DNA of 64,000 nt from Acidobacteriaceae bacterium (GTDB lineage: Bacteria > Acidobacteriota > Terriglobia > Terriglobales > Acidobacteriaceae). The stretch spans positions 74 to 64,073 of the forward strand of contig PMYL01000015.1 in the NCBI GenBank assembly GCA_003170825.1, given 5' to 3'. The position numbers and the translations under genes are program-made. Positions 40,458 to 58,116 of the stretch are shown here, in pieces (within the stretch, counting starts at the first letter, position 1; every line of letters begins with the position of its first letter). The notes under the pieces are model-generated. The model saw only the letters and a program-made list of their open reading frames with translations, was not told the DNA's origin and ran no database searches.

Positions 40458-40856
40458 GATTCGCCCCTTGCGTCCATCACCGCCACCGGCCCGGTTATTT
40501 CTTTAGCGAATCCGACGCTGCACCTCCCACGCCCCGCGCTGGCGGCCCCTGGAGGGTGTATACGCCCTGCTTCACTCCGGGAAACCGCCCGTAAACATCC
40601 GTGTACACCGGACGGGGACAGCACGCCGTAAACTGCCCAAATTGAGGCAGTTTGGGGCCTCCGGCGATTTGGTCTGACAATTGCTATAAAGATCGAGTCC
40701 CCTAAATTCTAGGGGGGAAGGAGCATGGGTATGCACTCGTTCGCCTGGTGGCCAACGCTCATCGTACTAGCCGTGGCGACCTTCACGGATCTGCGCAGCC
40801 GCCGCATCCCAAACTGGCTGGTGCTTCCTTTCCTTCTGGCGGGAATTGCGGTTTCC
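40458..40856 (+). repeat. ~400-bp duplicated block (upstream region + 5' end of prepilin peptidase), copy 1
   Basis: Aligns nearly base-for-base with 49861..50252. Confidence 0.93.
40670..40684 (+). promoter_or_regulatory. Sigma54-like promoter of cpaA
   Basis: TGGTCT-GACAA-TTGC (GG-N10-GC); the same spacing is kept in copy 2 (TGGCTG-GACAA-TTGC). Confidence 0.55.
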
Positions 40857-41273
40857 CCTTGGCGTCAGAACTGGCCCGGCATCGGTCGTGGCTTGGGCTG
40901 GCACGGCATCGGCCAAAGCTTGGCCGGTCTGGGACTTGGCATCCTGATCTACGGTTTTTTGTTCTGGATGGGCGGCATGGGGGCAGGGGACGTGAAGCTG
41001 TGTGCCGCGATCGGGGCCTGGATTGGCCCGGGTCAATTGTTGATCGCATTGGTCATCGCCGGCATGGCCGGGGGAATCATGGTTCTGTGCTGGGCCGCCT
41101 TTGGCGGATTTTTCAAGGAACTGTTTACGGGCGCGGGCGATCTGGTATTCGGTTGGAAGGAGCGCGGATTGCAACGCGATCCGGATCTGGTTTTGACCAA
41201 TCCCCTGAAACGCAAAATGCCCTACGCTCCGGCCATCGCCATTGGAACACTGATTTCCTTTTTTTCTCATTGA
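40725..41273 (+). CDS. cpaA: Prepilin peptidase CpaA/TadV (A24 family)
   Basis: FTDLRSRRIPNWL, GGMGAGDVKL and MPYAPAIAIG; AAGGAG RBS. Confidence 0.92.
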   Translation: MGMHSFAWWPTLIVLAVATFTDLRSRRIPNWLVLPFLLAGIAVSPWRQNWPGIGRGLGWHGIGQSLAGLGLGILIYGFLFWMGGMGAGDVKLCAAIGAWIGPGQLLIALVIAGMAGGIMVLCWAAFGGFFKELFTGAGDLVFGWKERGLQRDPDLVLTNPLKRKMPYAPAIAIGTLISFFSH

Positions 41274-41396
41274 GGCCGGAACAGGGACTATGATCGTCTG
41301 GAAGACGGCCAATGGGACCACCAGTAAATTCAGACCAATGGCGTGAATTTGGAACGCCGATTCTTTTTTTTCTCATTGACGACCGGAACGAGGACT

Positions 41397-44300
41397 ATGA
41401 TGAATTATCAATCTCAGGTTAACCCGCAAGGCCAGTTCCATGCAGCAGGGAGGACCAATTCCGTGAATACAGACTCTTCCCAATATCTCGATGCCCAATT
41501 TCCCGACTCCTTTGGCGCCGCTCGTCTATCGATTGCGGTGATCGGCCCTGACGAAAGTCTCCGCAACGCGGTAGCGAAGGCTTTTGCCGAATGCCAGCAA
41601 GGGGGCGATGTCCGGGAATTCGCATCCTACCCGCCCGGCCTGGACGATGTGCCAAGGTTGCTCGAGCAGCGTTACGACGTTATCGTCATCGATCTGGACA
41701 GCAATCCCGAATACGCCCTTGAACTGGTGGAGAGCATCGGCGCCAACGGCGTAGCGACCGTGATGGTCTATTCGGCGAAGGCCGATCCGGACCTGCTGGT
41801 ACGCTGCATGCGAGCGGGCGCTCGCGAGTTTCTGACTCAGCCCTTCGCCCTAAACACCATGGCCGAGGCCATGGTCCGGGCAGCGGCCCGCCGTCCGGCA
41901 AATCACCCCCTGAAGAAGGCAGGCGGCAGGTTGCTCGTATTTTTCGGCGCCAAGGGCGGCGCCGGTGTCACCACCATCGCCTGCAATTTTGCGGTAGCGC
42001 TGGCTCAGGACCCTTCCCAAAGCACCCTGTTGCTCGATCTCGATCTGCCGCTGGGAGACGCCGCGCTCAACCTCGGGCTGGTCGCGGAATACTCGACAGT
42101 CAACGCTCTTCAGGAGTCCGGCCGGCTGGATTCGAGTTTTCTCTCCAAGCTTCTGATCAAGCATAGTTCGGGGCTATACGTGCTCGCGGCTCCGGGTAAA
42201 TTGCCGCAGTACCAGGCCTCCGATGAGTCCATCGACAGGCTGCTGACAGTTGCGCGCCAGGACTTCGATAACGTGGTGATCGATATGGGATCGAGGCTTG
42301 ATTTAATGGGTACGGCTCTCTTCAAAGAAGCGAAGACGATCTACCTGGTAACACAGGCCGGCATCCCCGAACTGCGCAACTCAAATCGCCTGATCAGCCA
42401 GTTCTTCAGCGCGGGCGACCCCAAACTCGAAATCGTGATCAACCGATATCAGCTTCGCGCCCTGGGAGTGGATGACGAACATATTACGAAGGCTCTCACC
42501 AGGCCGGCGCAGTGGAAAATTCCCAACGATTATGACGCTGTGCGGCAGATGCAGAACACCGCTACCCCGCTGGTGCTGGAAGATTCGCCCATTTCACGGC
42601 TGATCCGGGAGATGGCCGGCTCCGTTACCGGGCAGCCCGTACCCCAGGGAAAAAAGAAAGGTTTCAGTTTTAGAAGTCTTGGCAGGAAGAGCGCCGCCGC
42701 CGAGGAGCCGCTGAGCATTACACCACGATCGACACCTGGACCGGTTCACGGCGGCGCCACGCTAGGCGCGACTCAACCTGACGCCAGGGCGAACACCCCG
42801 GAACCGTTGGTCCATACTCCTCCCGCGGGCACGGTGCCTTCGTCTGGACCGCGGACGTTCTTAAGTACATCCACGCCAACGGAGACCGCAGACCGCGCTG
42901 ACCGCGCGGACACGAAGCAGGAGGCATTGCCAAGCGGCAGCACCCCCAATCGGCAGAGCGAACCTGCAACGCGCATTTACAAAGGCGTTACCTATGTAAA
43001 GGGAGCGGACGGCCAATGGCACCAGCAGGCAACTGAGACCCATGTCGTGACTCAGGAGACGCCGACCATCGCATGGTCGACGCCCGATCCGATTACCTAC
43101 GGCACCGCGCTCAGCGACACTCAGCTCAATGCCACGGCATCGGTTGAGGGAAAATTCGTCTACGCTCCTGCCGTAGGGTACGTGTTCCCGGCGGGAACGC
43201 ATACGCTCTGGGTAATCTTCACTCCGGCGGACACTACGAAGTACACCACGGCACAGGCCGACGCGTCGCTCGCTGTCACCAAGGCGACGCCGACCGTCAC
43301 ATGGCCGAAGCCCTTTTCGATTCCTTACGGCACCGCGCTCAGCGCCACGCAGCTCAATGCCAGGGCATCGGTTCCGGGAACATTCGCCTACACTCCCGCC
43401 GCAGGCACCGTGCTTACAGCAGGGATCCAGACGCTCTCGGCAACCTTCACTCCGGCGGTCGCCACGAACTACACCCCGGCGGAAGCCGAAGCGCAGCTCA
43501 CTGTCACCAAGTCGGCGCCGGCCATCACATGGCCGACGCCCGCTCCGATTGCCTACGGCACTGCGCTCAGCGACGCTCAGCTCAATGCCACGGCATCGGT
43601 TGAGGGAAGATTCGTCTACATTCCCGCCGCAGGCGCCGTGCTCGCGGCGGGAACGCATACGCCCTCGGTAACCTTCACTCCGGCGGACGCCACGAACCAC
43701 ACCACGGCACAGGCCGCCGTGTCGCTCACTGTCACCAAGGCGACGCCGACCATTACATGGCCGACGCCCGATCCGATTGCCTACGGCACCGCGCTCAGCG
43801 CCACTCAGCTCAATGCCAGGGCATCGGTTGAGGGAAGATTCGCCTACACTCCCGCCGCAGGCGCCGTGCTTACAGCGGGAACACAGACGCTTACGGCAAC
43901 CTTCACTCCGACGGACGCCGCGGACTGCACCACGGCGCAGGCCGCCGTGTCGCTCACTGTCACCAAGGCGACGCCAACCATTATCGCGTGGCCGACACCC
44001 CATGACATTTCCTACGGCTCCGCGCTCAGCGCCGCTCAGCTCAATGCCACAGCGCCGGTTCCGGGAACGTTCGCCTACACGCCCGCCGCAGGCGATGTGC
44101 TCGCGGCGGGAACGCATACGCTCTCGGTAACCTTTACTCCAGCGGACTCCAACCTCCCCACGGCGCAGGGCACCGTGTCGCTCACTGTCACCAAGGCGAC
44201 GCCAACCATCACGTGGCCGACACCCCATGACATTTCCTACGGCACAGCGCTCAGCGCCGCGCAGCTCAATGTCACGGCATCGATTCCGGGAACGTTCGCC

Positions 44301-44879
44301 TACACTCCCGCCGCAGGCGACGTGCTTACAGCGGGAACACAAATGCTCTCGGCAACCTTCACTCCGACGGACACCACGAAGTACACCACGGCGGAGGCCG
44401 CCGTGTCGCTCACTGTCACCAAGGCGACGCCGACCATCACATGGCTGACGCCCGATCCGATTGCCTACGGCTCCGCGCTCAGCGCCGCTCAGCTCAATGC
44501 CAGGGCATCGGTTCCGGGAACATTCGCCTACACTCCCGCCGCAGGCACCGTGCTTACAGCGGGAACGCAGACGCTCTCGGCTACCTTCAATCCGACGGAC
44601 ACCGCGGACTACACGACGGCGCAAGCCACTGTGTCGCTTGTGGTGGATGAGTTGCCCAACCTCGCTTCGGTCACGCTGGCAGCGGTCGATGCGGATGCTG
44701 AAGATCTATTTCAGCCGTTTCAGACCGATGGCGACAATAAGAGAGGTCAGAAGAGCAGGATCGAGAGCAAGACCCCACAAAGCGGCAAAACCCCCAACCA
44801 GCAGGGCGAACCTGAAACGCGCGCTTACAAAGGCGCTACGTATGTGAAAGGAGCCGATGGCCAATGGCACCTACAGTAA
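41397..44879 (+). CDS. CpaE/TadZ-like ATPase fused to seven Ig-like (MBG-type) repeats
   Basis: N-terminal ~430 aa is paralogous to 33958..35154 (GAKGGAGVTT, IPELRNS, KIPNDY), followed by seven ~76-aa TKATPTITW..YGTALS..QLNA repeats in one open frame. Confidence 0.88.
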   Translation: MMNYQSQVNPQGQFHAAGRTNSVNTDSSQYLDAQFPDSFGAARLSIAVIGPDESLRNAVAKAFAECQQGGDVREFASYPPGLDDVPRLLEQRYDVIVIDLDSNPEYALELVESIGANGVATVMVYSAKADPDLLVRCMRAGAREFLTQPFALNTMAEAMVRAAARRPANHPLKKAGGRLLVFFGAKGGAGVTTIACNFAVALAQDPSQSTLLLDLDLPLGDAALNLGLVAEYSTVNALQESGRLDSSFLSKLLIKHSSGLYVLAAPGKLPQYQASDESIDRLLTVARQDFDNVVIDMGSRLDLMGTALFKEAKTIYLVTQAGIPELRNSNRLISQFFSAGDPKLEIVINRYQLRALGVDDEHITKALTRPAQWKIPNDYDAVRQMQNTATPLVLEDSPISRLIREMAGSVTGQPVPQGKKKGFSFRSLGRKSAAAEEPLSITPRSTPGPVHGGATLGATQPDARANTPEPLVHTPPAGTVPSSGPRTFLSTSTPTETADRADRADTKQEALPSGSTPNRQSEPATRIYKGVTYVKGADGQWHQQATETHVVTQETPTIAWSTPDPITYGTALSDTQLNATASVEGKFVYAPAVGYVFPAGTHTLWVIFTPADTTKYTTAQADASLAVTKATPTVTWPKPFSIPYGTALSATQLNARASVPGTFAYTPAAGTVLTAGIQTLSATFTPAVATNYTPAEAEAQLTVTKSAPAITWPTPAPIAYGTALSDAQLNATASVEGRFVYIPAAGAVLAAGTHTPSVTFTPADATNHTTAQAAVSLTVTKATPTITWPTPDPIAYGTALSATQLNARASVEGRFAYTPAAGAVLTAGTQTLTATFTPTDAADCTTAQAAVSLTVTKATPTIIAWPTPHDISYGSALSAAQLNATAPVPGTFAYTPAAGDVLAAGTHTLSVTFTPADSNLPTAQGTVSLTVTKATPTITWPTPHDISYGTALSAAQLNVTASIPGTFAYTPAAGDVLTAGTQMLSATFTPTDTTKYTTAEAAVSLTVTKATPTITWLTPDPIAYGSALSAAQLNARASVPGTFAYTPAAGTVLTAGTQTLSATFNPTDTADYTTAQATVSLVVDELPNLASVTLAAVDADAEDLFQPFQTDGDNKRGQKSRIESKTPQSGKTPNQQGEPETRAYKGATYVKGADGQWHLQ
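43053..44645 (+). repeat. Seven tandem ~228-bp coding repeats (Ig-like domains)
   Basis: Recurrent tacggcaccgcgctcagcg...cagctcaatgcca...cactcccgccgcagg units. Confidence 0.93.
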
Positions 44880-45877
44880 AAATAGAGGGGAAGCAACCCG
44901 CGACACTCCCCGCGGATTTCGGTGCGTGGGATAGTGGAGAACATCCCGAGACACTACCTGACAACTTCGACGACTTCGATGCTGTCCCGAAGCCGCCTAC
45001 GAAGCCTACGAAGCCTACGAAGCCTGCGACGGCGCAAGCCACCGTGTCGCATGTTGTGGAAGGTCAGAAACGCAGGGTCGAGGGCAGGATCGAGGGCAAG
45101 AGCGAGGGCAAGATCGAGGGCAGGAGCGAGGGCAAGAGCGAGGGCAAGAGCAAGAATAAGATGATGGTGACGTTTGTCTCCATCGGTGCGGTTCTGCTCA
45201 TCCTCATCCCGCTGGGCTATTTTAAGTTGCTGCCCAAGCTGGCCAAGCAGGGGCAGTCGGTAGTGCCGCAGCCGACGACGACGTCGCTGACGCCGACGCA
45301 GACGACGTCGCTGACGCCGACGACCAAGCCGAAGCCGGCGCCGACGCCGCTGACGGAGACGCCGGAGGCAGTACCCACGCCTCGCGTGCAGTCGGAGATG
45401 ATGAACAATCAGCTGAATGCGCCCACGCGGATTTCGCACGATATTAAGACGATGTCCGAGAAGGACGCGCCGCCCTCATCGGGCTTTGGCGCGACCGGCA
45501 TGGAAGGCCTGAGCGGCAATTCGGGCGGCGCGGTTGGCAGCGTATTCAGTGGAAAGACCGGGCCTAGGGTGACGGCGGAGGTTTCCAAGGCGCTCAACGT
45601 TTCCGGCGGCGTCATGGCGGGCAGGGTGATTGCGAAAACTTCGCCTGTTTATCCGCCCCTCGCCCGTACTGCGCGCGTAGCCGGCACGGTGGTTTTGCAT
45701 GCCACCATTTCCAAGGCGGGGACGATCGCAAATGTCAACGTAGTGAGTGGGCCGGCCATGTTGCGCCAGGCCGCTCTCGATGCCGTGAAGACCTGGCGCT
45801 ACAGGCCCTACCTGCTCAACAACGAGCCCGTGGAAGTGGAGACCACGGTGAATGTGATTTTCGCCTTGGGTGGATGA
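44864..45877 (+). CDS. TonB family protein within the tad operon
   Basis: One TM helix, Pro/Thr-rich linker and a TonB C-terminal domain (PVYPPLARTARVAGTVVLHATI..AALDAVKTWRYRPYLLNNEPVEVETTVNVIF). Confidence 0.85.
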   Translation: MAPTVKIEGKQPATLPADFGAWDSGEHPETLPDNFDDFDAVPKPPTKPTKPTKPATAQATVSHVVEGQKRRVEGRIEGKSEGKIEGRSEGKSEGKSKNKMMVTFVSIGAVLLILIPLGYFKLLPKLAKQGQSVVPQPTTTSLTPTQTTSLTPTTKPKPAPTPLTETPEAVPTPRVQSEMMNNQLNAPTRISHDIKTMSEKDAPPSSGFGATGMEGLSGNSGGAVGSVFSGKTGPRVTAEVSKALNVSGGVMAGRVIAKTSPVYPPLARTARVAGTVVLHATISKAGTIANVNVVSGPAMLRQAALDAVKTWRYRPYLLNNEPVEVETTVNVIFALGG

Positions 45878-45972
45878 CGAACTTTCTGCCTCCTTCCCGC
45901 TTTTTTGTGAAAGGGGCTGCTTTTCAAAACGATGGCCGCGGACGAGGATAATCTCCCGACGGAAGGCAGAAT

Positions 45973-47253
<1,281 letters not shown>

Positions 47254-47281
47254 GTAGAAAGGGGAAGGGGGATCAATAGAT

Positions 47282-48256
47282 ATGGGACCGATCATGATTG
47301 TGGTATTCCTGGGCGTGTTCGCGTTCGTCGCTCTTCTGATGGTCGCCAGCGGGGCTGGCGCCGCTGAGCAGGCCAAACATGTTCTCGCTTCGCTGGACTC
47401 GGCCCTGGCCACCGAAAGCGCGGAAGCGCGCGATCAAATCCTCAATCTTCGCAAGAGCGATTCGTTCAGCGCCATCCCCTGGCTCAATCTAAGGCTGCGG
47501 AAGCTCCAACTGGGGCCGCTGCTGCACAACCTGCTGAGTCAGGCAAATCTCAAGTGGACCGCGGGAGGCATGCTTGCCATGTCCGCGGTCGGCTTTATAT
47601 TCTCGGCCTATCTGGTTTACTGGTACTTCGGCAGATCCATACTCCTGGCTCTTATTGCCGGGTTGCTGCTGGGCTTCGCGCCTTTGGGCTGGGCGCTCCA
47701 TAAGCGAAGTAAACGCTTCAACAAGTTTCAGGAGGGGTTGCCGGAAGCGCTCGATCTGATGGTAAGCGCCCTCCGCGCCGGGCATAGTCTCATCGCCGCA
47801 ATGGGTTTAGTGGCTCGTGAGTGCAGCGACCCGGTCGGCCCCGAATTCAAGGCATGTTTCGAGGAGCAGAACTACGGCCTTGAACTGAAGACGGCTATCG
47901 ACAACATGATCAACCGCGTTCCGCTGCAAGATCTCAGAATTGTCTCAACCGCGATCATGATCCAAAAAGAGAGCGGAGGAAACCTTGCCGAGGTGCTCGA
48001 CAAGACCGCTCATGTAATTCGGGAGCGGTTCCGGCTGAAGCGGCAGGTCGGGGTCCACACAGCTCAGGGGCGCTTGACAGGGTGGGTCCTCACCCTTCTC
48101 CCTATCGTACTGGGAGTCGCTCTATACTTCGTCAACCCCACAATGATGAGCATTTTGTGGACGAATCCGATCGGCATCAAGCTCCTCTGGATAGCTAGCA
48201 TCATGATCGTGATTGGCGGTTTGATCATTCGCAAAATTGTCAACATAGATATTTGA
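47282..48256 (+). CDS. tadB: Flp pilus assembly protein TadB
   Basis: LPEALDLMVSALRAGHSL, IQKESGGNLAEVL and TAQGRLTG. Confidence 0.93.
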   Translation: MGPIMIVVFLGVFAFVALLMVASGAGAAEQAKHVLASLDSALATESAEARDQILNLRKSDSFSAIPWLNLRLRKLQLGPLLHNLLSQANLKWTAGGMLAMSAVGFIFSAYLVYWYFGRSILLALIAGLLLGFAPLGWALHKRSKRFNKFQEGLPEALDLMVSALRAGHSLIAAMGLVARECSDPVGPEFKACFEEQNYGLELKTAIDNMINRVPLQDLRIVSTAIMIQKESGGNLAEVLDKTAHVIRERFRLKRQVGVHTAQGRLTGWVLTLLPIVLGVALYFVNPTMMSILWTNPIGIKLLWIASIMIVIGGLIIRKIVNIDI

Positions 48257-48265
48257 AGGGGACTT

Positions 48266-49180
48266 ATGGGATTTGCGATTTCTGCTTTTGTTGTCGTTTT
48301 TCTGTTGATCGCGAGCGGTGGACTGCTGCTGTTCTATCGCGAAGCGATGCTTCAGCGGATCTCCGAGGTGATCAACCCGCAGGCCAAGCAGCAGCGGACC
48401 CTGTTGAGCACCATCCAACAGACAGGGCTTTCCATTAGCGGCGTGGTGGAACACTTCGAGAATATCCTGCCGAAAAGCCAGGCGGAAGTCTCCGTGGTCA
48501 AGCAGCGCCTCATCCGCGCCGGCTATCGCCGGGACACTGCGATCAAGATATTCTATGGCTCCAAGGTATTGGTTCCCCTGCTGCTCTGCGTTGTGGCTGG
48601 GGTCAGCGGACTCGGGAACATTGGCGGGTTTTTCGTGTATATCGCAGCCCTGGGTTTTGGATTCCTGGCGCCGGATTTCTGGCTGGGGCGGCGGATTACC
48701 GTCCGCCAACGCCGTATTCGGCGCGGCCTTCCAGACGCGCTTGATCTTCTTGTCATCTGCATCGAGGCCGGACTGAGCCTGGACCAGGGGACGGCACGCA
48801 CCGCGCAGGAATTGAGCAAAGCGCAGCCGGAGTTGAGCGATGAATTGACCATCGTCGTGCTGGAGCAACGCGCCGGACGGCCTCGTGCCGATACCTGGAA
48901 ACATTGGGCGGACCGCACCGGCGTGGATGCTGTGCGCAATCTCGTCTCCATGCTGGTTCAATCGGAACAGTTTGGAACCAGCATCGCCAAGACATTACGC
49001 GTTCATTCCGACACCCTCAGGACCCAGCGTGTGCAGCATGTGGAGGAGATGGCGGCGAAGAGCACCATCAAGCTGATCTTCCCGCTTGTTCTTTTCATCT
49101 TTCCCGCGCTTTTCGTGGTTGTTATGGGTCCTGCGGTCATCATGATCATCGAATCGTTCAAATCGTCGTTTGGCAATTGA
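48266..49180 (+). CDS. tadC: Flp pilus assembly protein TadC
   Basis: LPDALDLLVICIEAGLSLD, QSEQFGTSI and KLIFPLVLFIFPALFVV. Confidence 0.93.
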   Translation: MGFAISAFVVVFLLIASGGLLLFYREAMLQRISEVINPQAKQQRTLLSTIQQTGLSISGVVEHFENILPKSQAEVSVVKQRLIRAGYRRDTAIKIFYGSKVLVPLLLCVVAGVSGLGNIGGFFVYIAALGFGFLAPDFWLGRRITVRQRRIRRGLPDALDLLVICIEAGLSLDQGTARTAQELSKAQPELSDELTIVVLEQRAGRPRADTWKHWADRTGVDAVRNLVSMLVQSEQFGTSIAKTLRVHSDTLRTQRVQHVEEMAAKSTIKLIFPLVLFIFPALFVVVMGPAVIMIIESFKSSFGN

Positions 49181-49197
49181 AGGAAGGAGGAATCTAT

Positions 49198-49293
49198 ATG
49201 GACAGTACCATGATTATCCGGATTGTCTGCGGCGTGCTTTTTGTCGCCGTCTTGATCGTTTTGATTCAGCGGCGCCGCACACGGGTCAAGTAG
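49198..49293 (+). CDS. 31-aa single-TM micropeptide with basic tail, copy 1
   Basis: AAGGAGG RBS followed by MDSTMIIRIVCGVLFVAVLIVLIQRRRTRVK*. Confidence 0.8.
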   Translation: MDSTMIIRIVCGVLFVAVLIVLIQRRRTRVK

Positions 49294-49463
49294 CACGGAT
49301 TGCGCGGGAAGACCGGGCGGCGCAGTGGAATTGCGCGAACTCCGCCGGCCGGCTCCGCAGCCCTGCTGCATGGGGACCTCGCCGTTTTGGCGCTGGGCGT
49401 CGCCCGCGTCCTAGTCCGATTGGGAACATATGAAGCAGGCAGTTGAGAGAAAGGGGAATTGTT

Positions 49464-49559
49464 ATGAACAGTGTCACGATTATTCAGGTTGTCGCTGGCG
49501 TGCTCTTTGTCGTCGTCTTGATCATCCTGATTCAGCGCCGCCGCACACGGGTCAAGTAG
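49464..49559 (+). CDS. 31-aa single-TM micropeptide with basic tail, copy 2
   Basis: AAAGGGG RBS followed by MNSVTIIQVVAGVLFVVVLIILIQRRRTRVK*; same length and tail as copy 1. Confidence 0.8.
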   Translation: MNSVTIIQVVAGVLFVVVLIILIQRRRTRVK

Positions 49560-49860
49560 CGCGGTTTCACAGATGAGCTAGTGGCATCGTGCAACTGGAC
49601 GAACTCCGCTGGCCAACTCGATATTCCTGCTGGCCGGGCGCCTCGCCACTGAGACGATGAGAGTCTATGTGTCCTGTTGCGGCGGCGAGAGAGGAGGCGT
49701 GTGCCCTTGCACGGTACTCCGTGCAGGCTCTACTCCGCGCCAGGCCAAGCAGTTCATGTTCGCGACCCGGCGATTGCAGAGAAAGGACCTTGAATTGCGG
49801 AGAAAGGATCTTGAAGGGGCTCGCCTGGATACGCGCGGCAGAAGAGGTAAAGTCTTCATT

Positions 49861-50252
49861 TTGCGTCCATCAGCGCCACCGGCCCGATCATTTTTTTAGC
49901 GAATCCGACGCTGCACCTCCCAGGCCCCGCGCTGGCGGCGCCTGGGGGATGTATACGCCACGCTTCACTGCGGGAAACCGCCCGTAAACGTCCGTGTACA
50001 CCGGCCGGGGACAGCACGCCGTAAACAGCCCAAATTGAGGCTGTTTGGGCCTCCGGCGATTTGGCTGGACAATTGCTAGCTCTAGGATAACAACTCCCCT
50101 AAATCCTAGGGGAAGGAGCATGGGTATGCACTCGTTCGCCTGGTGGTCAACGCTCATCGCACTCGCCGTGGCGACCTTGACGGATCTGCGCAGCCGTAGC
50201 ATCCCCAAACTGGCTGGTGCTCCCTTTCCTTCTGGCGGGAATCGTCGTTTCC
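49861..50252 (+). repeat. ~400-bp duplicated block, copy 2
   Basis: Aligns with 40458..40856. Confidence 0.93.
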
Positions 50253-50284
50253 GGTTGGATCCATGGGTGGCGAGGTTGAGTTAG
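50120..50284 (+). pseudogene. Truncated, frameshifted prepilin peptidase (cpaA) copy
   Basis: MGMHSFAWWSTLIALAVATLTDLRSRSIP matches cpaA. An extra C (atccccaaac versus atcccaaac) shifts the frame and homology ends at ~50252. Confidence 0.88.
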
Positions 50285-50343
50285 CAATGGTGACTACGGA
50301 ACAACGCCCGGTTGCCGGGTACTCGCCGAGGGCGGGAGGTTAC

Positions 50344-51366
50344 ATGGAAGCACAACAGAAACTTTGCGCGTACAACCAAACTCGCGAGTGCTTTCTCGGC
50401 TTGGAGGTCGCTGCCGCGGATGTCCCGTATGCGAACCTCAAGGAGCTGATTGCAGGGCTCGCGCTCCAGTCCGGCGAGGGCCTCTGGATATCGCCGTTCA
50501 GAGGAATCCCCGATTCGGGCGTGTTTGCCCCGCTCGATCTGGTCTATCTGGACGAGGAATGCCGAGTCATCGACCTGGTCGAGTCTTTCCCGACATTTCG
50601 TGTCACCCCTTTGAGTCCGCAGGCGGCAAGCGTCCTGGCGCTGCCAACTCACTCGATCTATTCGTCGCAGACCCAACAGGGCGATCAACTGATGCTGTGC
50701 GCGGCCGAGGAGATGGAGCGCCGCCTGGAGGGGTTATCCAGCGCCGGCATTGCCGGCGCCGTGCAAGGCGCCGTTCTCTTGCGGGAGAAGCCGCTTTGGA
50801 GCGGCGGTCCTGGCCTGCTGCAATTGAACGGCCACCCCAATCACCCCAATACTGATGATGAACAAGATGATCAACAGGAAAGCCCACAAACCGAGCAGAC
50901 ACATGAGATGGGCCTGCTCGAACCGGGGACGGAGGAATTCAAGCCGCCGAAGAGTTGGTTGAATCGCTGGTGGTCGCCGGATCCGAGAAAGGCGCCGGAG
51001 ATGAGGAAGGCGCCACGGGCGCAGACGCCCGGCCTGGCTGCTTATTACTGGACCGGCGCCGCTCCGGATGCGCGCAACATCAAGGACATCAGTTCGACCG
51101 GATTGTACGTGGTGACCGAGGAACGTTGGTACCCCGGCACCCTGATCCTGATGACCCTGCAAAAGACGAACGGCGGGGATAAAAGCACTGAACATGCGAT
51201 CTCTGTGCATTCAAGGGCCGTCCGGTGGGGCAAGGATGGCGTGGGCCTACAGTTTGTCCTGAAGAATTCCGAGCCTCCAGACCCATCGAAGGGCTCCCAG
51301 GTAGACGCGGCGAGTAAAAAGGAACTCGAAAAATTCCTGAAGCAGCTCCGGAAGGGCAAAGGCTAG
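50344..51366 (+). CDS. DUF192-like domain fused to a C-terminal PilZ domain
   Basis: N-terminus GEGLWISP..PLDLVYLD..SVLAL resembles the DUF192 at 58117; C-terminus RKAPR...KDISSTGLY...AVRWGKDGVGLQF fits PilZ (RxxxR, DxSxxG). GGAGG RBS before ATG 50344. Confidence 0.78.
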   Translation: MEAQQKLCAYNQTRECFLGLEVAAADVPYANLKELIAGLALQSGEGLWISPFRGIPDSGVFAPLDLVYLDEECRVIDLVESFPTFRVTPLSPQAASVLALPTHSIYSSQTQQGDQLMLCAAEEMERRLEGLSSAGIAGAVQGAVLLREKPLWSGGPGLLQLNGHPNHPNTDDEQDDQQESPQTEQTHEMGLLEPGTEEFKPPKSWLNRWWSPDPRKAPEMRKAPRAQTPGLAAYYWTGAAPDARNIKDISSTGLYVVTEERWYPGTLILMTLQKTNGGDKSTEHAISVHSRAVRWGKDGVGLQFVLKNSEPPDPSKGSQVDAASKKELEKFLKQLRKGKG

Positions 51367-51383
51367 GCGCTCCTTCGGATGCC

Positions 51384-51412
51384 TTGCAAGTTCGCATGTT
51401 TTTTGCTATAAT
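51384..51412 (+). promoter_or_regulatory. Sigma70-type promoter upstream of tadE-tadG
   Basis: TTGCAA-N17-TATAAT with a TG extended -10. Confidence 0.7.
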
Positions 51413-51464
51413 CGGCATTTGTTGAGCCGGGTTTTTACGGTCAACAGAGCCGGAAGGGAGAGCG

Positions 51465-52067
51465 ATGAAAAACCCAAACGGCCTGCGCGGTCAAGCCATG
51501 GTGATCATGCGCGGTTTGAAGCGCGCCGCGGTGTCAAAGAGTGAACATGCAGAGGCCCGGTTCCCGGGCGGCCGGCTTCGCGCCCTGCGTCATTCCGGCG
51601 AAGAGGGACAATCGGCGGTTGAGTTCGCCTTGATGTTGCCGATGATGATGGTGATCATCACGGGCATATTGATCTTCGGTATCTACGAGATGCAAATACT
51701 GGCCCTGGTCGAAGGCGTGTCCAACGCCGGGCGGGTTCTTGCGGTCAGCGGGGGGCAGGTTTTGGATCCGTGCGCCACGGGAGTAACGGCGGTCACAGGT
51801 GCCGCGGCGGTGCTTAATTCGGCGAACCTCACGTACATTTTTACCTTCAACCCAGTCGCTGGCAATCTTCCCGCCAACAACCATTCGTACCCTCAAGCGT
51901 CGTGCCTCAGCTCCAATATCACCTCCCCGCCGTCAAGTTATATGATGACGGGTGGAACCGTCACGGTGCAGGCAACCTTTAATGCTTGTAGTCTCCAGTT
52001 CTACGGCAACAACCTTGCACCTGGCGGCTGTTCAATTACTCAGTCAATCACGGAGGTAGTCCAATGA
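51465..52067 (+). CDS. tadE: TadE-like pseudopilin
   Basis: EEGQSAVEFALMLP prepilin cleavage motif (G/Q..E+5) followed by a hydrophobic helix. Confidence 0.88.
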   Translation: MKNPNGLRGQAMVIMRGLKRAAVSKSEHAEARFPGGRLRALRHSGEEGQSAVEFALMLPMMMVIITGILIFGIYEMQILALVEGVSNAGRVLAVSGGQVLDPCATGVTAVTGAAAVLNSANLTYIFTFNPVAGNLPANNHSYPQASCLSSNITSPPSSYMMTGGTVTVQATFNACSLQFYGNNLAPGGCSITQSITEVVQ

Positions 52068-53620
52068 AGCACAGCAGCGAGTCTTTTCTGCGCCGTGCAC
52101 TCAAGTGCCAGAGCGGGCAGGCGTACATATCCCTGATTCTCATTATTCCCTTGATTTTAGGCGTGGGCGGATTGTCAGTGGACGTCGGCCACGCCTACGC
52201 ATGCTATCGCCAACTGCAGGCTTCCACCGATGCGGCTGCGCTGGCCGCAGGCCTGGGCCTGCCCAGTGGTGCCACAGTAGCGGAAAGCGATGCGACAGCG
52301 TTGAGCTCTGTATCCGGAAACGACAACGCCTTTGCCAGCTTGAATACCCCCTCCGCCTATACCGGCGCGCACTTATCATTCCAGCCGTATTGCGTGTCGA
52401 CCGTGCCGGGCGTGCCGCCGTGTGGCGGCTCCCTTACCTACAATGCCATCCGGGTGACGCAGTCCGTCACCGTGCCCACGTACTTCATCCGTGCTCTAGA
52501 AGTCATCGGCATCCAATCTGCCCAGTCCATCACGCTCAACGCCCAGGCAACCGCGGTCGTGACCGGTGGGGCGAGAGAACCAGACAGCGTCGCGATCATC
52601 TTCGACACAACCAGTTCGATGACGAGCACCGACGGCGGCGCCAACTGCACCGGCTCAAAGGAGCAATGTTCACTGGCAGGCGCTCAGATTATGATGTCCG
52701 AATTCTCGCCCTGCACATGGGGCGAGACCAACTGCGGCGCGGCTACCAACGGACTCGTCACCAACTCATTCGATGAGATCAGCTTCTTTACGTTTCCCGC
52801 GCAGAGTCCTGGCACTCAGGCGACCAAAGACTATGTCTGCCCCTCGGGGGTCCCCACTGAAATTGCATACCCCGATTCGACGACTTATACATCTTCGCCT
52901 CTCACCGCGCCTCTGACTTCGACTAAGCTGGCTTATCTGGTGAGCCGCTATCAGGTTGTGCCCCTATCCAGCGATTACCGCGTCAGCGACGGCACCATCG
53001 CGCCGAGCCCGTTGAACCTCAGTTCCAACATCGTGAAGGCGGTCGGGGGGAACAGCTATTGGGGGGGGACCACCAATAGTTGTAACGGCATGCAGGCCAA
53101 TGGCGGCGAGGGAACCTACTATGCGGGAGCAATCTATACGGCGAATCAGTATCTCATGGCCAATACGAGGGCGAACACCAATAACATCATCATCCTCTTC
53201 AGCGATGGCGATGCGGAGGGGTCAGGCACCGGGAATATCTCCACTTTTAGTGGCGGAACGCTGAATACGTCGTCGCCCTACAATTACCCTTCGGCCAAGG
53301 CCGAGTGCAATCAGGCGGTCGCAACGGCCGCGGCAGCCAAGGCCAACGGCACGGAAATCTTCGTGGTGGGCTACGGCGTGGCATCCGGAGGATGCGGCGA
53401 CACCGGGGAAAGCTCAGGAACCACCGCATGCTCCACGCTGAAGGCGATTGCCTCCCCCGACACGAAGACGCCGCATTTCTATGAGGACTCGTCGAGTACA
53501 CCCTGCGCCGGTGCTACAACGGTCTTAATGAACGGAAAGACCAACACCATTTCCGGAATCTTCTCACAGATCGTTAACTATTTATCGAAACCGAAGTTGG
53601 TTCTCAACGGCGCAGCATAG
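52064..53620 (+). CDS. tadG: TadG-like pilus-associated protein with VWA-like domain
   Basis: SGQAYISL..LGVGGLSVDVGHAY...LQASTDAAALAA Tad N-terminus; IIFDTTSSM and LFSDGDA MIDAS-like motifs. Confidence 0.82.
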   Translation: MKHSSESFLRRALKCQSGQAYISLILIIPLILGVGGLSVDVGHAYACYRQLQASTDAAALAAGLGLPSGATVAESDATALSSVSGNDNAFASLNTPSAYTGAHLSFQPYCVSTVPGVPPCGGSLTYNAIRVTQSVTVPTYFIRALEVIGIQSAQSITLNAQATAVVTGGAREPDSVAIIFDTTSSMTSTDGGANCTGSKEQCSLAGAQIMMSEFSPCTWGETNCGAATNGLVTNSFDEISFFTFPAQSPGTQATKDYVCPSGVPTEIAYPDSTTYTSSPLTAPLTSTKLAYLVSRYQVVPLSSDYRVSDGTIAPSPLNLSSNIVKAVGGNSYWGGTTNSCNGMQANGGEGTYYAGAIYTANQYLMANTRANTNNIIILFSDGDAEGSGTGNISTFSGGTLNTSSPYNYPSAKAECNQAVATAAAAKANGTEIFVVGYGVASGGCGDTGESSGTTACSTLKAIASPDTKTPHFYEDSSSTPCAGATTVLMNGKTNTISGIFSQIVNYLSKPKLVLNGAA

Positions 53621-53648
53621 CCGTCCGCAGGAGAATCAAGTTCCGCTA

Positions 53649-53687
53649 CCCGGCGAGTCCGTCCATTGGACTCGCCGGGAGTTTTTT
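53649..53687 (+). terminator. Intrinsic terminator after tadG
   Basis: 12-bp perfect stem cccggcgagtcc/ggactcgccggg followed by agtttttt. Confidence 0.85.
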
Positions 53688-55131
53688 ATTCGTCCTCTTC
53701 CGGAACAATCAGCAGCACTTCCACCTTGACATTTTGCCCATTCTGCGTGGCGGGCCTGAATTGCCACTGTGCGAGCGCGTCCAGGACGAACTTCGCCTGC
53801 GGGAAGTCGGGCGGGAAGACGATGGCCAGCGCCTCGAAGCGGCCGGCCTGATTCAGAAACCCGTGAACCATGAGGGCATCGGCGTTCCATTCGCCGGGAG
53901 CAAGATTGGGGCGCACGATGTTATACGGCCAGGGCGCATCCAGGCGAGCGATGTTGCCCGCCTCCGCCGCATCGGCGGAACGCGGGACAGAGTACTGGAG
54001 AATCCAGCTCTTGGCCAGGCCGAGGTGCAGATAAACGGTGTAGGCCAGCCTGCCGCTCCATAGCCCGGCCGTCTCAGGATACTTGTCTTCCAGCGAGACG
54101 CCCACCACAACCGACCCGAACTGGCCGTCTTTCGCCAGCGTAATATGGGAGGTCGAAGGCCGGTTACCGGAGCCGGAACCGGAGCCGGAGCCTGCTTCAG
54201 CCTTCTGGGCAGGCCCGGTTTTCGCTCCACCTCCGGCCCGATCGCCAGTGCTCCCTCCGGATGCCGGCTGGTCTTTCGAATCGCCCGCAGCCTGTCCCGC
54301 TCCCGTTCCGCCGGCCTTGCTGGCCGGATTGCCGTTCCCCGGCCGCGAAGAGTCCTTACCCTGTCCCTGCGCCAGCGCCCCTGGCGAATTTGCGGCAGCC
54401 GTCGCGTTTGCGGGCGGTAGAAAGACGGTTCCCGCGGTCATATGAAGATCGGAGAGCGACACAACGGCGGTGGGAGTTGACTGCGCGGACGACACCGAGG
54501 TGGTTTCCGGAATCTTCTGCGGCAAATCAGGCCCGTGAACCACCATTGGCGAGGTTGTGCTGGGGAGGATCGGCAGTTTCTGCGCGGTCAGGCCGGTGGC
54601 TGATATGCGAACGTCAGCCAGGTTGACTTCCTGATTGGGTGCCTCAAACTTGGGCAGCACTGAGGCGGCCATGGGTGTTTCCGGTGGGGGCGGAACGATC
54701 GCTTTGGGCGGCGTCTTCTCCGGCTGCCAAAGCACGACGGTCGGGACCGGGGTTTTCAGGAGGAGTTTCACGTTGGGCTGCACCTTCGGCTGCACCAGCG
54801 TCTGGAGTCCCTCCGGCGCTTGCGCAGTCTGCCGCAGAACCGCTAATGGGCTCCCGCCGGGTAAAGGCTTGTGCGCGACGTTCCGGGGGCCAGGAGACTT
54901 AATAGCGCTGGCGGTAGCCCGCCGCATCTCCTCGTCCGGGGCGTTCAGGTCCAGATGCCGCAGTTCATATCGCGCGGTGAGAACCCGGTTGTTCAACACC
55001 GGGGGGCTCAGTATCCCGAGAACTACCACAATCAGGGCAATATGCGCCAGAATCGAGACCGCAAAGGAAGATGACCGCCGGCTCAGATCCGGTCGCTCGG
55101 AAAAGAGCGTTATCGTGCGGGAAGACCTCAT
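53686..55131 (-). CDS. Hypothetical single-TM Pro/Gly-rich protein with TonB-C-like terminus
   Basis: SILAHIALIVVVLG TM helix, long Pro-rich linker and C-terminal ALAQWQFRPATQNGQNVKVEVLLIVP. Confidence 0.75.
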   Translation of the reverse strand: MRSSRTITLFSERPDLSRRSSSFAVSILAHIALIVVVLGILSPPVLNNRVLTARYELRHLDLNAPDEEMRRATASAIKSPGPRNVAHKPLPGGSPLAVLRQTAQAPEGLQTLVQPKVQPNVKLLLKTPVPTVVLWQPEKTPPKAIVPPPPETPMAASVLPKFEAPNQEVNLADVRISATGLTAQKLPILPSTTSPMVVHGPDLPQKIPETTSVSSAQSTPTAVVSLSDLHMTAGTVFLPPANATAAANSPGALAQGQGKDSSRPGNGNPASKAGGTGAGQAAGDSKDQPASGGSTGDRAGGGAKTGPAQKAEAGSGSGSGSGNRPSTSHITLAKDGQFGSVVVGVSLEDKYPETAGLWSGRLAYTVYLHLGLAKSWILQYSVPRSADAAEAGNIARLDAPWPYNIVRPNLAPGEWNADALMVHGFLNQAGRFEALAIVFPPDFPQAKFVLDALAQWQFRPATQNGQNVKVEVLLIVPEEDE

Positions 55132-55523
55132 GACCGGATGAACTCCCTCCCTCGCGCCGGATGGTCCTTCTTTACTTTACAGGGTTGGTCACATTTTATA
55201 CACTCTGAGGTGAGCCGGACAGTGAAAGATGCCATGTCCCCCTTTGGTAATCATTTGTGCTGTCTTTCGGGATCGGTTGCGGCAGGGATGCCCCATGACT
55301 TTCTTGATGCCCCAACTTCATACCACTGCCGTTTCGACTGAATTTAGTTGGCATCAGGGGAAAAGAGTGTACACTGATCACACGCTTGAACTTGTCTGAC
55401 TTTCTGTCACCGCCATCCCCAGGGTTTGGCGCGAAATCGAAACTCGTTTCCTTGGGCACAGCAATTGACCCAAGGGACAGCAAGGCGGAGCTGGCGGGGT
55501 AGCCGGCTCACACAGGTTTCCAA

Positions 55524-56396
55524 ATGAACCGAAGACTACTGACGATCCTTCTCCTCGCTTTCGTGATTGCCGGCGTATGCGCCTTTCTGGTCTATCGCAT
55601 GGTAGGCATCCGCTTGTCGGCGGCACAACCGTCAGCAACCATACACGTGGTTGCCGCAAACGCGGACATCAAACTCGGAGCCGTTCTGAACGCCGGCAAC
55701 CTGACGACTATCGAGATCGCGGGGGCGCTTCCCAAAGGCGCTATTCTCGAGAAAGACAAGATCAATGCCATTGGCCGGGGCGTCCTCTCGGACCTCTATC
55801 AGGGCGAGCCCATTCTGGAGAGCCGCCTGGCCGCCCCCGGCTCCGGCGGCGGGTTGGCAGCTACCATTCCCGAGGGCATGAGAGCGGCCGCTATCAGGGT
55901 CGATGATGTGGTGGGCGTGGCGGGGTTTGTCACTCCCGGAATGCGCGTGGACGTTCTTATCGCGGGGCTCCCTCCCGGCAATGCTTCCAACAACGCCCAG
56001 ATCGCCGATCAAGGCACTCTGGTGAAGACGCTGCTTCAGAACATCCAGGTCTTGTCGGCCGGCCAGGATATTCAAAAGGATGCTGAAGGCAAGCCGCATC
56101 CGGTCCAGGTAGTCAACCTGTTGGTGACCCCGGAACAGGCCGAGACCCTGAGCCTGGCCAGCAATCAGACAAGGATCCAACTGGTGCTGCGGAACCCGTT
56201 GGATACAAAGATTGGCGTGGTTCCAGTCACGGCCATGGCCAACCTCTTTACGGATCAGGCTCCCGCCCCGGTAAAAGCGCGGCCTGCCGCAAAGGCCGTT
56301 TTCAAAGCCGCACCACCTCCGGCCTTTACCATCGAGGTAATCAACGGGTCGAAACGGAGCGAGAAACAATTTAGTACTCCCGAGGGACAGAAGTGA
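55524..56396 (+). CDS. cpaB: Flp pilus assembly protein CpaB/RcpC
   Basis: VVAANADI..G (SAF), IPEGMRA..RVDDVVGVAGFVTPGMRVDVL, LQNIQVLSAGQ and LVLRNPLD. Confidence 0.93.
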   Translation: MNRRLLTILLLAFVIAGVCAFLVYRMVGIRLSAAQPSATIHVVAANADIKLGAVLNAGNLTTIEIAGALPKGAILEKDKINAIGRGVLSDLYQGEPILESRLAAPGSGGGLAATIPEGMRAAAIRVDDVVGVAGFVTPGMRVDVLIAGLPPGNASNNAQIADQGTLVKTLLQNIQVLSAGQDIQKDAEGKPHPVQVVNLLVTPEQAETLSLASNQTRIQLVLRNPLDTKIGVVPVTAMANLFTDQAPAPVKARPAAKAVFKAAPPPAFTIEVINGSKRSEKQFSTPEGQK

Positions 56397-57946
56397 GAGC
56401 AAAGGCTGGAAAACCCATCGCATGTATTGGCGCATTGTTTTTTGTCCTGTGCGCCGAGCCGGGCCTGCAGGCTCAGAGTTCACCATCTCTTTCCCAACCC
56501 GCCGGGGCCTCGATTCAAGACTCCGCGAATGAACTCTCCGTCGCTGTGGGCAAGACCGTATTGGTCGACACTGCGCGGCCGATAGCGCGGGTCGCCCTCG
56601 GCCTGGCGGAAGTGGCCGATGCCGAACCGACCAGCCCAACCGAGATCATGGTGACTGGCAAAACCCCTGGGGAAACCAGTCTGATTATCTGGGATACCCG
56701 CGGCGGCCGGCAGTTCTTCAACGTGACGGTGCGCGCCAGCTCGGCTGTATCGAACGACAACCTGGACGCGATCCGCCGCGAGATCAGAACGGAGCTTCCC
56801 GGCGAACCCGTGAAGGTCAGCACCGAGAACGGCATCATCTTCCTGCGCGGCACGGTCAAGAACCTCAACAGCTCCGATCGCGCGGTCAAGATTGCCTCCA
56901 CTGGCGGTAAGGTCGTCAACCTGCTCAACGTCAATGTGCCACCCCCAGACCCGCAGATTCTCCTCAAGGTGCGTTTTGCCAGTGTCGACCTCAGCAAGGA
57001 GCAACAGCTCGGCATCAATTTTTACAGTTCCGGCTTTGGAAACACGATTGCCGGAATTTCAACCGGACAGTTCTCTCCGCCATCGCCGACCCTCACAACA
57101 CCCTCCACGGTGAATCAAACTAGTAATCTGAACCTCTTTGCTTTCTTGCCCGGCCTGAATCTGGGCGCAACCCTCGAGGCCCTGCAACAAAAAGGCATCA
57201 CCGAGGTTCTGGCTGAGCCCAACATCCTGGCGTCGAACGGCAAACAGGCCAGCTTTCTGGCCGGCGGAGAATATCCCTTTCCAATGGTTCAGGGCGGCTC
57301 GGGCGGTGCGGGAGCGTCGGTTACGATCATGTTCAAGGAATATGGAGTTCGCCTGAACTTCATCGCCACCGTAACTCCCCGCGGAACGATCCGCCTCCAA
57401 GTGGCCCCGGAAGTCAGTTCGCTAGACTTTACCCAGGGAATTGAGATCTCGGGATTTGATGTCCCCTCCATTAACACCCGGAGAATGAAGACCGAGGTCG
57501 AATTGGCTGACGGTCAAAGCTTTGGGATCGGTGGACTGTTGGACAACCGCGACACCGAAACCTTCATGAAGATCCCGTTCCTGGGAGACATTCCAATTCT
57601 GGGCAAGCTTTTCCAGTCGATGCAAAAGACCAAGACAAAGACGGAACTCATCGTGATTGTGACGCCGGAGATTGTGGCTCCCATTGAGGCCGGGGCGCCC
57701 TTGCCTGAGCTGAAGTATCCCGGGAAGTTCCTGCCGCCCAACTCCGGCATACCCATGAATACTCCGGACGCCAAGACGGCTGCTAACACGCTACCCCCAG
57801 TACCGCCAACCATGCCCGTGGAGAAATTGATTGACAGTATGAAGCCGGAGCAGCCGCTGATGGTCGAAGGAGGCAGCGCGACTTTTGGTGGCGGCGGCTC
57901 GACGAGCGGCACTGCCGCACCTGCTTCCACGCCCGTGCCTTACTGA
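56393..57946 (+). CDS. cpaC: Flp pilus secretin CpaC/RcpA
   Basis: T2SS-T3SS_pil_N-like and BON-like N-terminus; QILLKVRFASV, LAEPNI..SFLAGGEYP, FKEYGVRL and IPFLGDIPILGKLF..TELIVIVTP. Confidence 0.93.
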   Translation: MRAKAGKPIACIGALFFVLCAEPGLQAQSSPSLSQPAGASIQDSANELSVAVGKTVLVDTARPIARVALGLAEVADAEPTSPTEIMVTGKTPGETSLIIWDTRGGRQFFNVTVRASSAVSNDNLDAIRREIRTELPGEPVKVSTENGIIFLRGTVKNLNSSDRAVKIASTGGKVVNLLNVNVPPPDPQILLKVRFASVDLSKEQQLGINFYSSGFGNTIAGISTGQFSPPSPTLTTPSTVNQTSNLNLFAFLPGLNLGATLEALQQKGITEVLAEPNILASNGKQASFLAGGEYPFPMVQGGSGGAGASVTIMFKEYGVRLNFIATVTPRGTIRLQVAPEVSSLDFTQGIEISGFDVPSINTRRMKTEVELADGQSFGIGGLLDNRDTETFMKIPFLGDIPILGKLFQSMQKTKTKTELIVIVTPEIVAPIEAGAPLPELKYPGKFLPPNSGIPMNTPDAKTAANTLPPVPPTMPVEKLIDSMKPEQPLMVEGGSATFGGGGSTSGTAAPASTPVPY

Positions 57947-58116
57947 GGTTCCCGGCTGCCCATCCAGGCAGCCGGAGCCCTTGCAGAAGGACGGTTCTCC
58001 CATTCTGGCCCTGGCTTGAAGGGCGCGGCGAATCGCGCCCATCAGGGGTATGAAAGTTGAAGCGCAGTCCGCGCAGGGTGCGGCTACAGACAGGCGAAAG
58101 GTTCTGAGTCAACCGG

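Follow-up and report, generated by a model that had tools for sequence, protein, structure and literature searches.

A conserved candidate micro-protein family encoded downstream of tadC in the Tad pilus gene clusters of Acidobacteria

Single-helix micro-proteins are known as subunits of several membrane complexes, such as KdpF with KdpABC, AcrZ with AcrB, and CydX with cytochrome bd. Proteins of this type have about 30-50 amino acids (aa), are encoded in or beside the operon of their complex, contain a transmembrane (TM) helix conserved for intramembrane contact, and often remain unannotated. To our knowledge, none has been described for a machine of the type IV filament class. Neither current parts lists of the Tad machine nor the fullest in-situ model available include a micro-protein (PMC13170226). 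Here we consider two tandem genes for 31-aa peptides in a 64,000-nucleotide (nt) stretch of contig PMYL01000015.1 (assembly GCA_003170825.1) of an Acidobacteriaceae bacterium, hereafter the window. These genes are situated inside a complete Tad (Flp) pilus gene cluster, directly 3' of tadC. They belong to a large unannotated family that has no description in the curated families or the literature searched, and very probably encode a real, translated, Tad-associated micro-protein.

The peptide genes and the parts of the duplicated unit that contains them are the following.

49198-49293, + strand: peptide gene 1 (open reading frame ORF1), 31 aa, MDSTMIIRIVCGVLFVAVLIVLIQRRRTRVK; supported by reading of the sequence, the list of open reading frames, the rescan with a hidden Markov model (HMM) and hydropathy
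49464-49559, + strand: peptide gene 2 (ORF2), 31 aa, MNSVTIIQVVAGVLFVVVLIILIQRRRTRVK; paralogue of gene 1
49182-49190, + strand: Shine-Dalgarno site GGAAGGAGG of peptide gene 1, 7 nt 5' of the ATG
49450-49458, + strand: Shine-Dalgarno-like, purine-rich site AAAGGGGAA of peptide gene 2, 7 nt 5' of the ATG
49294-49449, + strand: spacer 1, non-coding, within the duplicated unit; unconserved between loci, no excess of RNA structure
49560-49860, + strand: spacer 2, non-coding; its first ~150 nt weakly resemble spacer 1

The ATG of peptide gene 1 lies 17 nt beyond the tadC stop codon (49178-49180). Both peptides end in the same tail, QRRRTRVK, and are 74% identical over the whole length. The two ORFs differ in eight codons non-synonymously, all eight changes being conservative, and in four codons synonymously, including CGG/CGC in the tail. 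The units form a direct repeat with a 266-nt period, where the identity is ~80% across the Shine-Dalgarno site and ORF (49172-49301 against 49438-49567) and the similarity is weaker further downstream. An earlier reading of this DNA from the sequence alone had described two 31-aa ORFs of equal length, each with a ribosome-binding site, with a shared basic tail differing synonymously, conservative substitutions, and a duplicated unit of ~266 bp with related downstream sequence, all directly downstream of tadC. This description holds in all points that can be checked.

Both peptides were concatenated and used as the query of a word-indexed search in 5.8 billion sequences (E < 1e-3). More than 120 clusters at 90% identity were found, all with a common 31-aa core, MD(S/N/T)(T/V)(T/M)II(R/Q)(I/V)VAGVLFV(I/V)VL(V/I)(V/I)LIQRRRTRVK. 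Residues N-terminal to the core are not conserved and resemble translated ribosome-binding sites. Position 1 of the core is methionine in 114/119 matches, and a stop codon directly follows position 31 in 117/119. An index-free profile search in 1.84 billion representatives at 50% identity produced 547 matches at E <= 1e-3 (121 at E <= 1e-10), many of the 547 having been called at exactly 31 aa. No Pfam-A or NCBIfam r20 family matches either peptide above threshold, the best one being PVV-CTERM with 12.7 bits and E 0.08 (cutoff 27 bits), and no Rfam 15 match was found for the peptide region. In public databases the members are labelled "hypothetical protein" or carry evidently wrong names (SecG, ParE, permease).

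A scan of one genome per GTDB species identified 311 stretches encoding relatives. The best 80 of them, nearly all from metagenome-assembled genomes of Acidobacteriaceae or Terracidiphilus from peat, bog or soil, were combined with the window into a set of 81 loci and rescanned with the HMM. The rescan yielded 133 copies, all of exactly 31 aa and all on the tadC strand. One copy is present in 36 loci, two in 38 and three in 7, with spacing of 180-273 nt. With 133 occurrences of this 31-aa ORF across the 81 loci, the pair in the window is far beyond chance. The sequence-only reading had proposed a search for homologues and for their linkage to tad genes; both were found, the linkage holding in all 81 loci.

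A longer variant of the peptide, 54-56 aa, was found in L081-L083 (P0230), and also in P0184, P0216 and P0229. It lacks methionine at the usual start; the N-terminus is instead extended by a conserved stretch that includes another hydrophobic segment and a loop of acidic character (...NVAxxLxxYxWDGDADKNT-IIRIV...); synteny of its locus is otherwise identical. Locus L056 (CAWAVJ010000031.1) is labelled "uncultured Alphaproteobacteria bacterium". However, its tblastn coordinates and identities equal those of L059, and it closely resembles other Acidobacteriaceae loci (e.g. L062, L064), which points to a probable error in labelling or binning.

The amino acid sequence of the peptide is under strong purifying selection. 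In 129 unique coding sequences analyzed by the Nei-Gojobori method, the pooled pN/pS ratio is 0.21. The mean non-synonymous distance (dN) is 0.13 and the mean synonymous distance (dS) is 1.11, which is near saturation, the ratio being 0.12; thus the dN/dS calculation that the sequence-only reading had suggested gives purifying selection. The mean entropy at codon positions 1, 2 and 3 is 0.47, 0.22 and 1.25 bits respectively. Invariant residues are encoded by varied codons: six for L22, CAG and CAA for Q24, and CGC, CGT, CGG and CGA for R25-R27. G12 is retained in 127/129 copies. Paralogous copies from the same locus differ in 524 codons synonymously and in 239 non-synonymously, and six pairs encode identical proteins despite differences in up to 17 of 30 codons. 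The codon statistics and the conserved Shine-Dalgarno sites suggest that the peptide is translated.

The region is also transcribed in situ. Twenty metagenomes from peat or permafrost contain >= 99% of its sampled words, and five metatranscriptomes contain 100% of the peptide region. Contigs of four peat or permafrost metatranscriptomes were placed on positions 40000-58000 and cover the whole tad cluster. The depth is very uneven (e.g. 3.7-14 over 53823-55024), which argues against simple carry-over of DNA. In the bin with the peptide genes (49015-49615) the depth is 271, 155, 27 and 59 in the four runs, compared to 49-90, 49-90, 1-9 and 28-59 in the bins of tadB and tadC, contig depth being a rough measure of expression to which some DNA may have contributed. 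In three runs no bin of the operon is deeper than the peptide bin, and in the fourth it and the neighbouring tadC bin are practically equal. Individual RNA contigs extend from tadC into the peptide genes (X28, 48148-50140; X26, 48759-49827; X27, 48997-49556), and thus the peptide genes are co-transcribed with tadC.

The genes flanking the peptides that matter most for what follows are these.

47282-48256, + strand: tadB, platform protein paralogous to TadC (Pfam T2SSF), five TM helices predicted from hydropathy
48266-49180, + strand: tadC, T2SSF inner-membrane platform protein, 304 aa (Pfam T2SSF E 1e-16), four predicted TM helices and a periplasmic C-terminus (hydropathy and loop charges)
50263-51366, + strand: DUF192-PilZ partner, 367 aa (sub-threshold Pfam matches)

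The gene order, established by tblastn with the window proteins in all loci, is conserved: the peptidase TadV, TadZ, CpaF, TadB, TadC, the peptide or peptides, the orthologue of the 367-aa protein, often TadE and TadG, then CpaB and the secretin. In most loci the first ATG is 14-45 nt past the tadC stop codon, and in every locus the first peptide copy is preceded by a GGAGG or AAGGGAG motif. The distance from the ORF to the next gene varies from 180 to 700 nt. More distant loci retain the core of this arrangement. In L084-L086 the order is secretin, TadZ, CpaF, TadB, TadC, two 31-aa peptides and a DUF192 protein of 121 aa; in L088, TadC, the peptide and a DUF192 protein of 124 aa; in L087 a DUF192 fragment follows the peptide. 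In the rearranged locus of the contig that carries P0191, tadC does not adjoin the peptide, which is still found together with CpaF, DUF192 and an FHA protein. Overall, the peptide held its operon position in ~95 loci that represent five or more lineages. In three proteobacterial tad loci the space after tadC is too small for such a gene, and hence the peptide module is lineage-restricted.

In the window, the gap between the second peptide gene and the DUF192-PilZ gene is 703 nt, unusually long compared to ~200-400 nt in other loci, because of an insertion of ~395 bp. The inserted segment, 49861-50258, is a segmental duplication of 40468-40862 with ~92% identity. It comprises the region 5' of the prepilin-peptidase gene together with the Shine-Dalgarno site and the first ~46 codons of that gene. 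The peptidase start in the copy (ATG at 50120) belongs to a pseudogene fragment: a 1-nt insertion shifts the frame after ~29 codons, and a stop codon occurs after 54 codons. RNA contig X28 crosses the junction of this insertion.

The sequence-only reading had overlooked the gene downstream of the peptides, which is an equally constant neighbour: a DUF192 or DUF192-PilZ gene follows the peptide in every locus examined. The 367-aa protein of the window consists of a DUF192-like N-terminal domain, an acidic linker and a PilZ domain, with no TM helix and no signal peptide. Both its Pfam matches are sub-threshold (DUF192, residues 60-143, E 0.006; PilZ, residues 272-336, E 0.002). Among the orthologues, 15 of 16 long ones match PilZ (best E 7.5e-7), and DUF192 is matched by 12 of 18 proteins scanned, both standalone forms included (best E 7.5e-19). 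By tblastn, the N-terminal domain is 33% identical over 107 aa to the standalone DUF192 of L084, and the standalone partners again have neither a signal peptide nor a TM segment. A search of PDB sequences with the 367-aa protein gave nothing meaningful. The PilZ domain of the window protein contains the motifs RxxxR (RKAPR) and DxSxxG (DISSTG), and the motifs for cyclic di-GMP (c-di-GMP), (R)RxxxR and D(I/V)SxxG, are kept in 66/67 orthologues. Thus the DUF192-PilZ protein is likely a c-di-GMP receptor, judging by these motifs. The orthologues are acidic, with a median net charge of -8.

Each peptide is predicted from hydropathy to form one helix at residues ~5-23, with a mean Kyte-Doolittle hydropathy of 3.11. 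The N-terminal loop contains no lysine or arginine and one aspartate, whereas five of the last eight residues are lysine or arginine. By the positive-inside rule, the predicted topology is N-out/C-in, with the acidic N-terminus (MD..) in the periplasm and the arginine-rich tail QRRRTRVK in the cytoplasm. The chain of TadC ends five residues past its last predicted helix, on the periplasmic side, and the periplasmic N-terminus of the peptide would begin exactly where TadC ends. In TadB, helix 4 is followed by a periplasmic loop of 12 residues and then by TM5, which returns to the cytoplasm and ends with RK.... TM5 resembles the peptide in running out-to-in, from a basic residue on the periplasmic side through 15-16 hydrophobic residues to a basic cytoplasmic end; the two layouts are IGIK-LLWIASIMIVIGGLII-RK and MIIR-IVCGVLFVAVLIVLI-QRRR. 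This resemblance is topological only. When the profile of the peptide was compared by hhalign with those of TadB and TadC, the best E values were 0.17 and 0.14, and the peptide was aligned to other helices. Fission of a fifth TadC helix into a separate gene was considered and rejected, since TadC of Proteobacteria likewise comprises four helices and the peptide shows no homology to TM5 of TadB.

The helix of the peptide is conserved over distances at which the platform and motor proteins have diverged considerably. The proteins of locus L084 are identical to those of the window by 57% (CpaF), 44% (TadC) and 38% (TadB), and CpaF of Alphaproteobacteria, with 52-54% identity, is about as far from the window as CpaF of L084. 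The peptide of L084 keeps 16 of the first 23 residues, or 70% (MDTAVIIRIVAGVLFVVVLGVII), and so the family has changed less than the motor ATPase across an equal evolutionary distance. This degree of conservation points to a specific intramembrane contact of the helix, as far as can be judged from comparison of the sequences. The tail evolves differently. In the Acidobacteriaceae clade, R25-R27 are never replaced by lysine among the 129 unique copies, which suggests that the arginine tail is more than a topogenic signal; in the L084 lineage it is only generically basic, ARRKTNNA or SRRKAKNA.

Taken together, these observations are best explained if the peptide is a micro-protein that crosses the inner membrane once and belongs specifically to the Tad (Flp) pilus system. 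Its helix would pack specifically against the TadB/TadC platform, the likeliest site being beside the last helix of TadC, in a place matching that of TM5 in TadB. The arginine tail could then be the cytoplasmic docking point for the acidic DUF192-PilZ protein, or possibly for CpaF or TadZ. The micro-protein would thereby couple assembly or retraction of the pilus to a c-di-GMP-responsive regulator. We assign a probability of roughly 0.55 to this model of a platform subunit with a docking tail. A further-reaching version of it is doubtful. It assumes that the micro-protein and DUF192-PilZ form a c-di-GMP-responsive switch on the Tad platform, where the peptide would be an integral extra helix of TadB/TadC, and its tail (RRRTR, with RxxxR spacing) and PilZ would bind c-di-GMP or the motor, gating extension versus retraction in Acidobacteria.

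A number of points weigh against the model of a platform subunit with a docking tail. Despite the similar layout, the peptide has no detectable homology to TM5 of TadB (hhalign E ~0.15). Further, since TadC lacks a fifth helix in Proteobacteria too, where Azospirillum, Rhizobium and Ralstonia have the same asymmetry of a five-helix TadB and a four-helix TadC, nothing is "missing" from TadC. A genuine fusion of TadC with the peptide would be strong evidence for their contact, and candidate fusions were called in P0082 (L032), P0109, P0215 and P0226. All of them were rejected, as they come from frameshift-prone long-read metagenome-assembled genomes with broken tadC frames; in L032 the TadC match ends at residue 254. 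P0162, P0205 and P0233 are out-of-frame overlaps with tadC. Thus the fusion calls are probably indel artefacts and provide no Rosetta-stone support. The tail has five basic residues where the partner is DUF192-linker-PilZ and three or four where it is a bare DUF192, but this covers few lineages, and the link between tail charge and type of partner is only a lead. As to transcription, contig depth is coarse as a measure, and some DNA carry-over is possible. Finally, it is from sequence that we infer translation, membrane insertion and the physical contacts.

The main rival explanation, which we consider rather unlikely, is that the peptide is purely a membrane tether or receptor that holds DUF192(-PilZ) by its basic tail and makes no specific contact with TadB or TadC. 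This would account for the presence of a DUF192 gene after the peptide in every locus, for the two genes staying together in the rearranged locus where tadC is not adjacent, for the cytoplasmic and acidic nature of the partner, and for the different tail in lineages where the partner has no PilZ domain. However, conservation of the TM helix beyond that of TadC or CpaF would be superfluous in a pure anchor, and nearly all loci preserve the close junction with tadC.

A role as an atypical pilin or a pseudopilin-like substrate of the Tad system, suggested by a position that belongs to flp in some tad operons, is very unlikely. Like the prepilins of Flp/Tad systems, the peptide is small, hydrophobic and encoded by tandemly duplicated, strongly expressed genes in a tad operon, and a regular-expression scan of the 64-kb window revealed no Flp gene, so the pilin gene of this genome must lie elsewhere. 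However, these prepilins have a leader, a G/xxxxEY site and N-in topology, none of which is shared by the peptide. There is no leader and no G/xxxxE(Y) site, in agreement with the sequence-only reading: the sole glycine, G12, is followed by VLFV(I/A), with no glutamate at +5. The distribution of charges predicts N-out/C-in topology, opposite to that of prepilins. Moreover, 9 of 80 related loci carry canonical tandem Flp genes (EEGQDLVEYALVVALIAFG...) alongside the peptide. Given the lack of a processing site, the reversed topology and the coexisting Flp genes, pilin identity was rejected. The Flp genes, in one to three copies, are present in L006, L010, L019, L032, L045, L048, L050, L071 and L078. 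In eight of these loci they are located just after the secretin gene, ~7 kb 3' of the peptide (~15000-16000), at the edge of the range analysed; in L019 they are upstream, at ~1020-1120, likewise at the edge.

Another possibility, hardly a probable one, is that the peptide acts on membranes, in the manner of type I toxins or otherwise, and that its position in the operon is incidental. Toxins of the TisB, Ldr and Fst types also have one TM helix and a charged C-terminus, and are similar in size. Type I toxins are accompanied by an antisense RNA, encoded in cis or in trans, and their translation is tightly repressed. On the other hand, the peptide has a strong conserved Shine-Dalgarno site and a sense orientation within the operon. 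It occupies the same position in all the lineages described above, often in tandem copies, with high levels of RNA in situ, and a scan of both strands of 48800-50400 gave no promoter-like site.

Small ORFs upstream of DUF192-PilZ, tadE and tadG could also be conserved as a cis-regulatory element, namely a leader peptide (upstream ORF) or an RNA structure, rather than for the function of the peptide. This is highly improbable, as third codon positions are free to vary and the amino acids are fixed. An RNA element or terminator in the duplicated spacers was rejected on the basis of fold scores, blastn and a terminator scan. The spacers fold no better than shuffled sequence (z = +0.96 for spacer 1 and -0.53 for spacer 2), vary in length, and are essentially unalignable between loci, with two weak blastn matches among 133 downstream regions; no terminator follows either ORF, and Rfam contains no matching family. 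Thus the conserved object is the Shine-Dalgarno site with the 96-nt ORF and not an RNA or DNA element. Besides, a chain of 31 aa would still be in the ribosome tunnel at termination, so that it could not sense membrane insertion.

Least credible is the role of a stand-alone sorting-signal mimic, that is, a decoy or acceptor for exosortase- or sortase-like enzymes or GT-C transferases: the hydrophobic helix followed by an arginine/lysine cluster is indeed shared with PEP-CTERM, LPXTG and PVV-CTERM tails, and there is the weak match to PVV-CTERM, but this match is far under the cutoff, the peptide is a complete gene with its own Shine-Dalgarno site and ATG, it has no PEP, LPXTG or GlyGly motif, no cargo and no linked enzyme, and the conserved neighbours within +/-8 kb are TadC and DUF192 rather than an exosortase, sortase or transferase. 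The sequence-only reading had itself noted the lack of a sorting motif and cargo, as is confirmed here, and its suggestion of a decoy or acceptor for membrane transferases is not supported. Its other suggestion, a new small protein tied to the Tad machine, agrees with the invariant linkage, purifying selection, transcription in situ and absence of a curated family.

The remaining genes of the tad cluster in the window are listed below.

38243-39691, - strand: sigma-54-dependent NtrC-type regulator (Pfam/NCBIfam scans)
40725-41273: prepilin peptidase (Pfam/NCBIfam scans)
41343-44879: giant TadZ/CpaE-like protein, 1178 aa (Pfam/NCBIfam scans)
44864-45877: TonB_C protein (Pfam/NCBIfam scans)
45973-47253: CpaF/TadA (Pfam/NCBIfam scans)
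51465-52067: TadE-like gene
52064-53620: TadG-like gene with a VWA domain
53686-55131, - strand: conserved gene for a 481-aa protein between tadG and cpaB, with no family match except a weak C-terminal TonB_C-like stretch (E 0.02)
55524-56396: CpaB
56393-57946: secretin

The TadZ/CpaE-like protein contains REC-like and AAA_31 domains followed by seven tandem repeats of 228 nt (76 aa; 43011-44678) whose matches are Ig-like CFAP65/HYDIN/ASH domains. TadZ has ~440 aa in most related loci, and the repeat extension is common to L005 and L017 only. The TonB_C gene between tadZ and cpaF was found only in the same subset of loci. It holds a 12-nt tandem repeat in seven copies (45060-45174), and RNA contigs of two runs skip 170 nt within it (45214-45385), which suggests length variation between strains. 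The RNA depth of the 481-aa minus-strand gene is far below that of its neighbours.

A -24/-12-like element, TGGCTGGACAATTGCT, is present at 50062-50077 and at the equivalent site near 40669, that is, ~45-55 nt 5' of the peptidase ATG and of its duplicated copy. The GG and GC dinucleotides are properly spaced, and the divergently encoded sigma-54-dependent activator of the NtrC type lies nearby. However, the window shows no enrichment of the sigma-54 promoter pattern (40 matches, 35.7 expected), and this one plausibly placed site is a lead only.

The peptide resembles KdpF, AcrZ and CydX, insofar as general knowledge of these proteins allows for comparison, in size, in having one TM helix, in operon location and in having been missed by annotation. 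It has fewer than 50 aa, a single predicted TM helix and a gene placed with those of the complex, as is characteristic of micro-protein subunits. It differs from them in having no sequence relation to any of them, in the presence of one to three tandem copies, in the arginine-specific tail and in the pairing with DUF192(-PilZ). The family shows the cost of annotation that misses 31-codon genes or assigns them wrong starts. Its tight conservation, its high transcription in peat and the neighbouring likely c-di-GMP receptor together suggest that the Tad systems of Acidobacteria, a dominant and poorly studied soil phylum, contain an unrecognised module with accessory and regulatory functions. As for the partner, DUF192 of unknown function is consistently linked to Tad genes in Firmicutes, namely in Bulleidia extructa (PMC12786226). 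The loci described here are similar in that DUF192 is encoded beside Tad genes; unlike the case in B. extructa, where no micro-protein was reported (PMC12786226), here fusion of DUF192 with PilZ is frequent, and DUF192 invariably comes after the peptide. This gives a concrete context to a domain whose structures have been solved and whose function is unknown. Thus micro-protein accessories to membrane machines are a known class, and what is new here is the setting of a type IV filament system, the pairing with DUF192-PilZ and the tandem copies.

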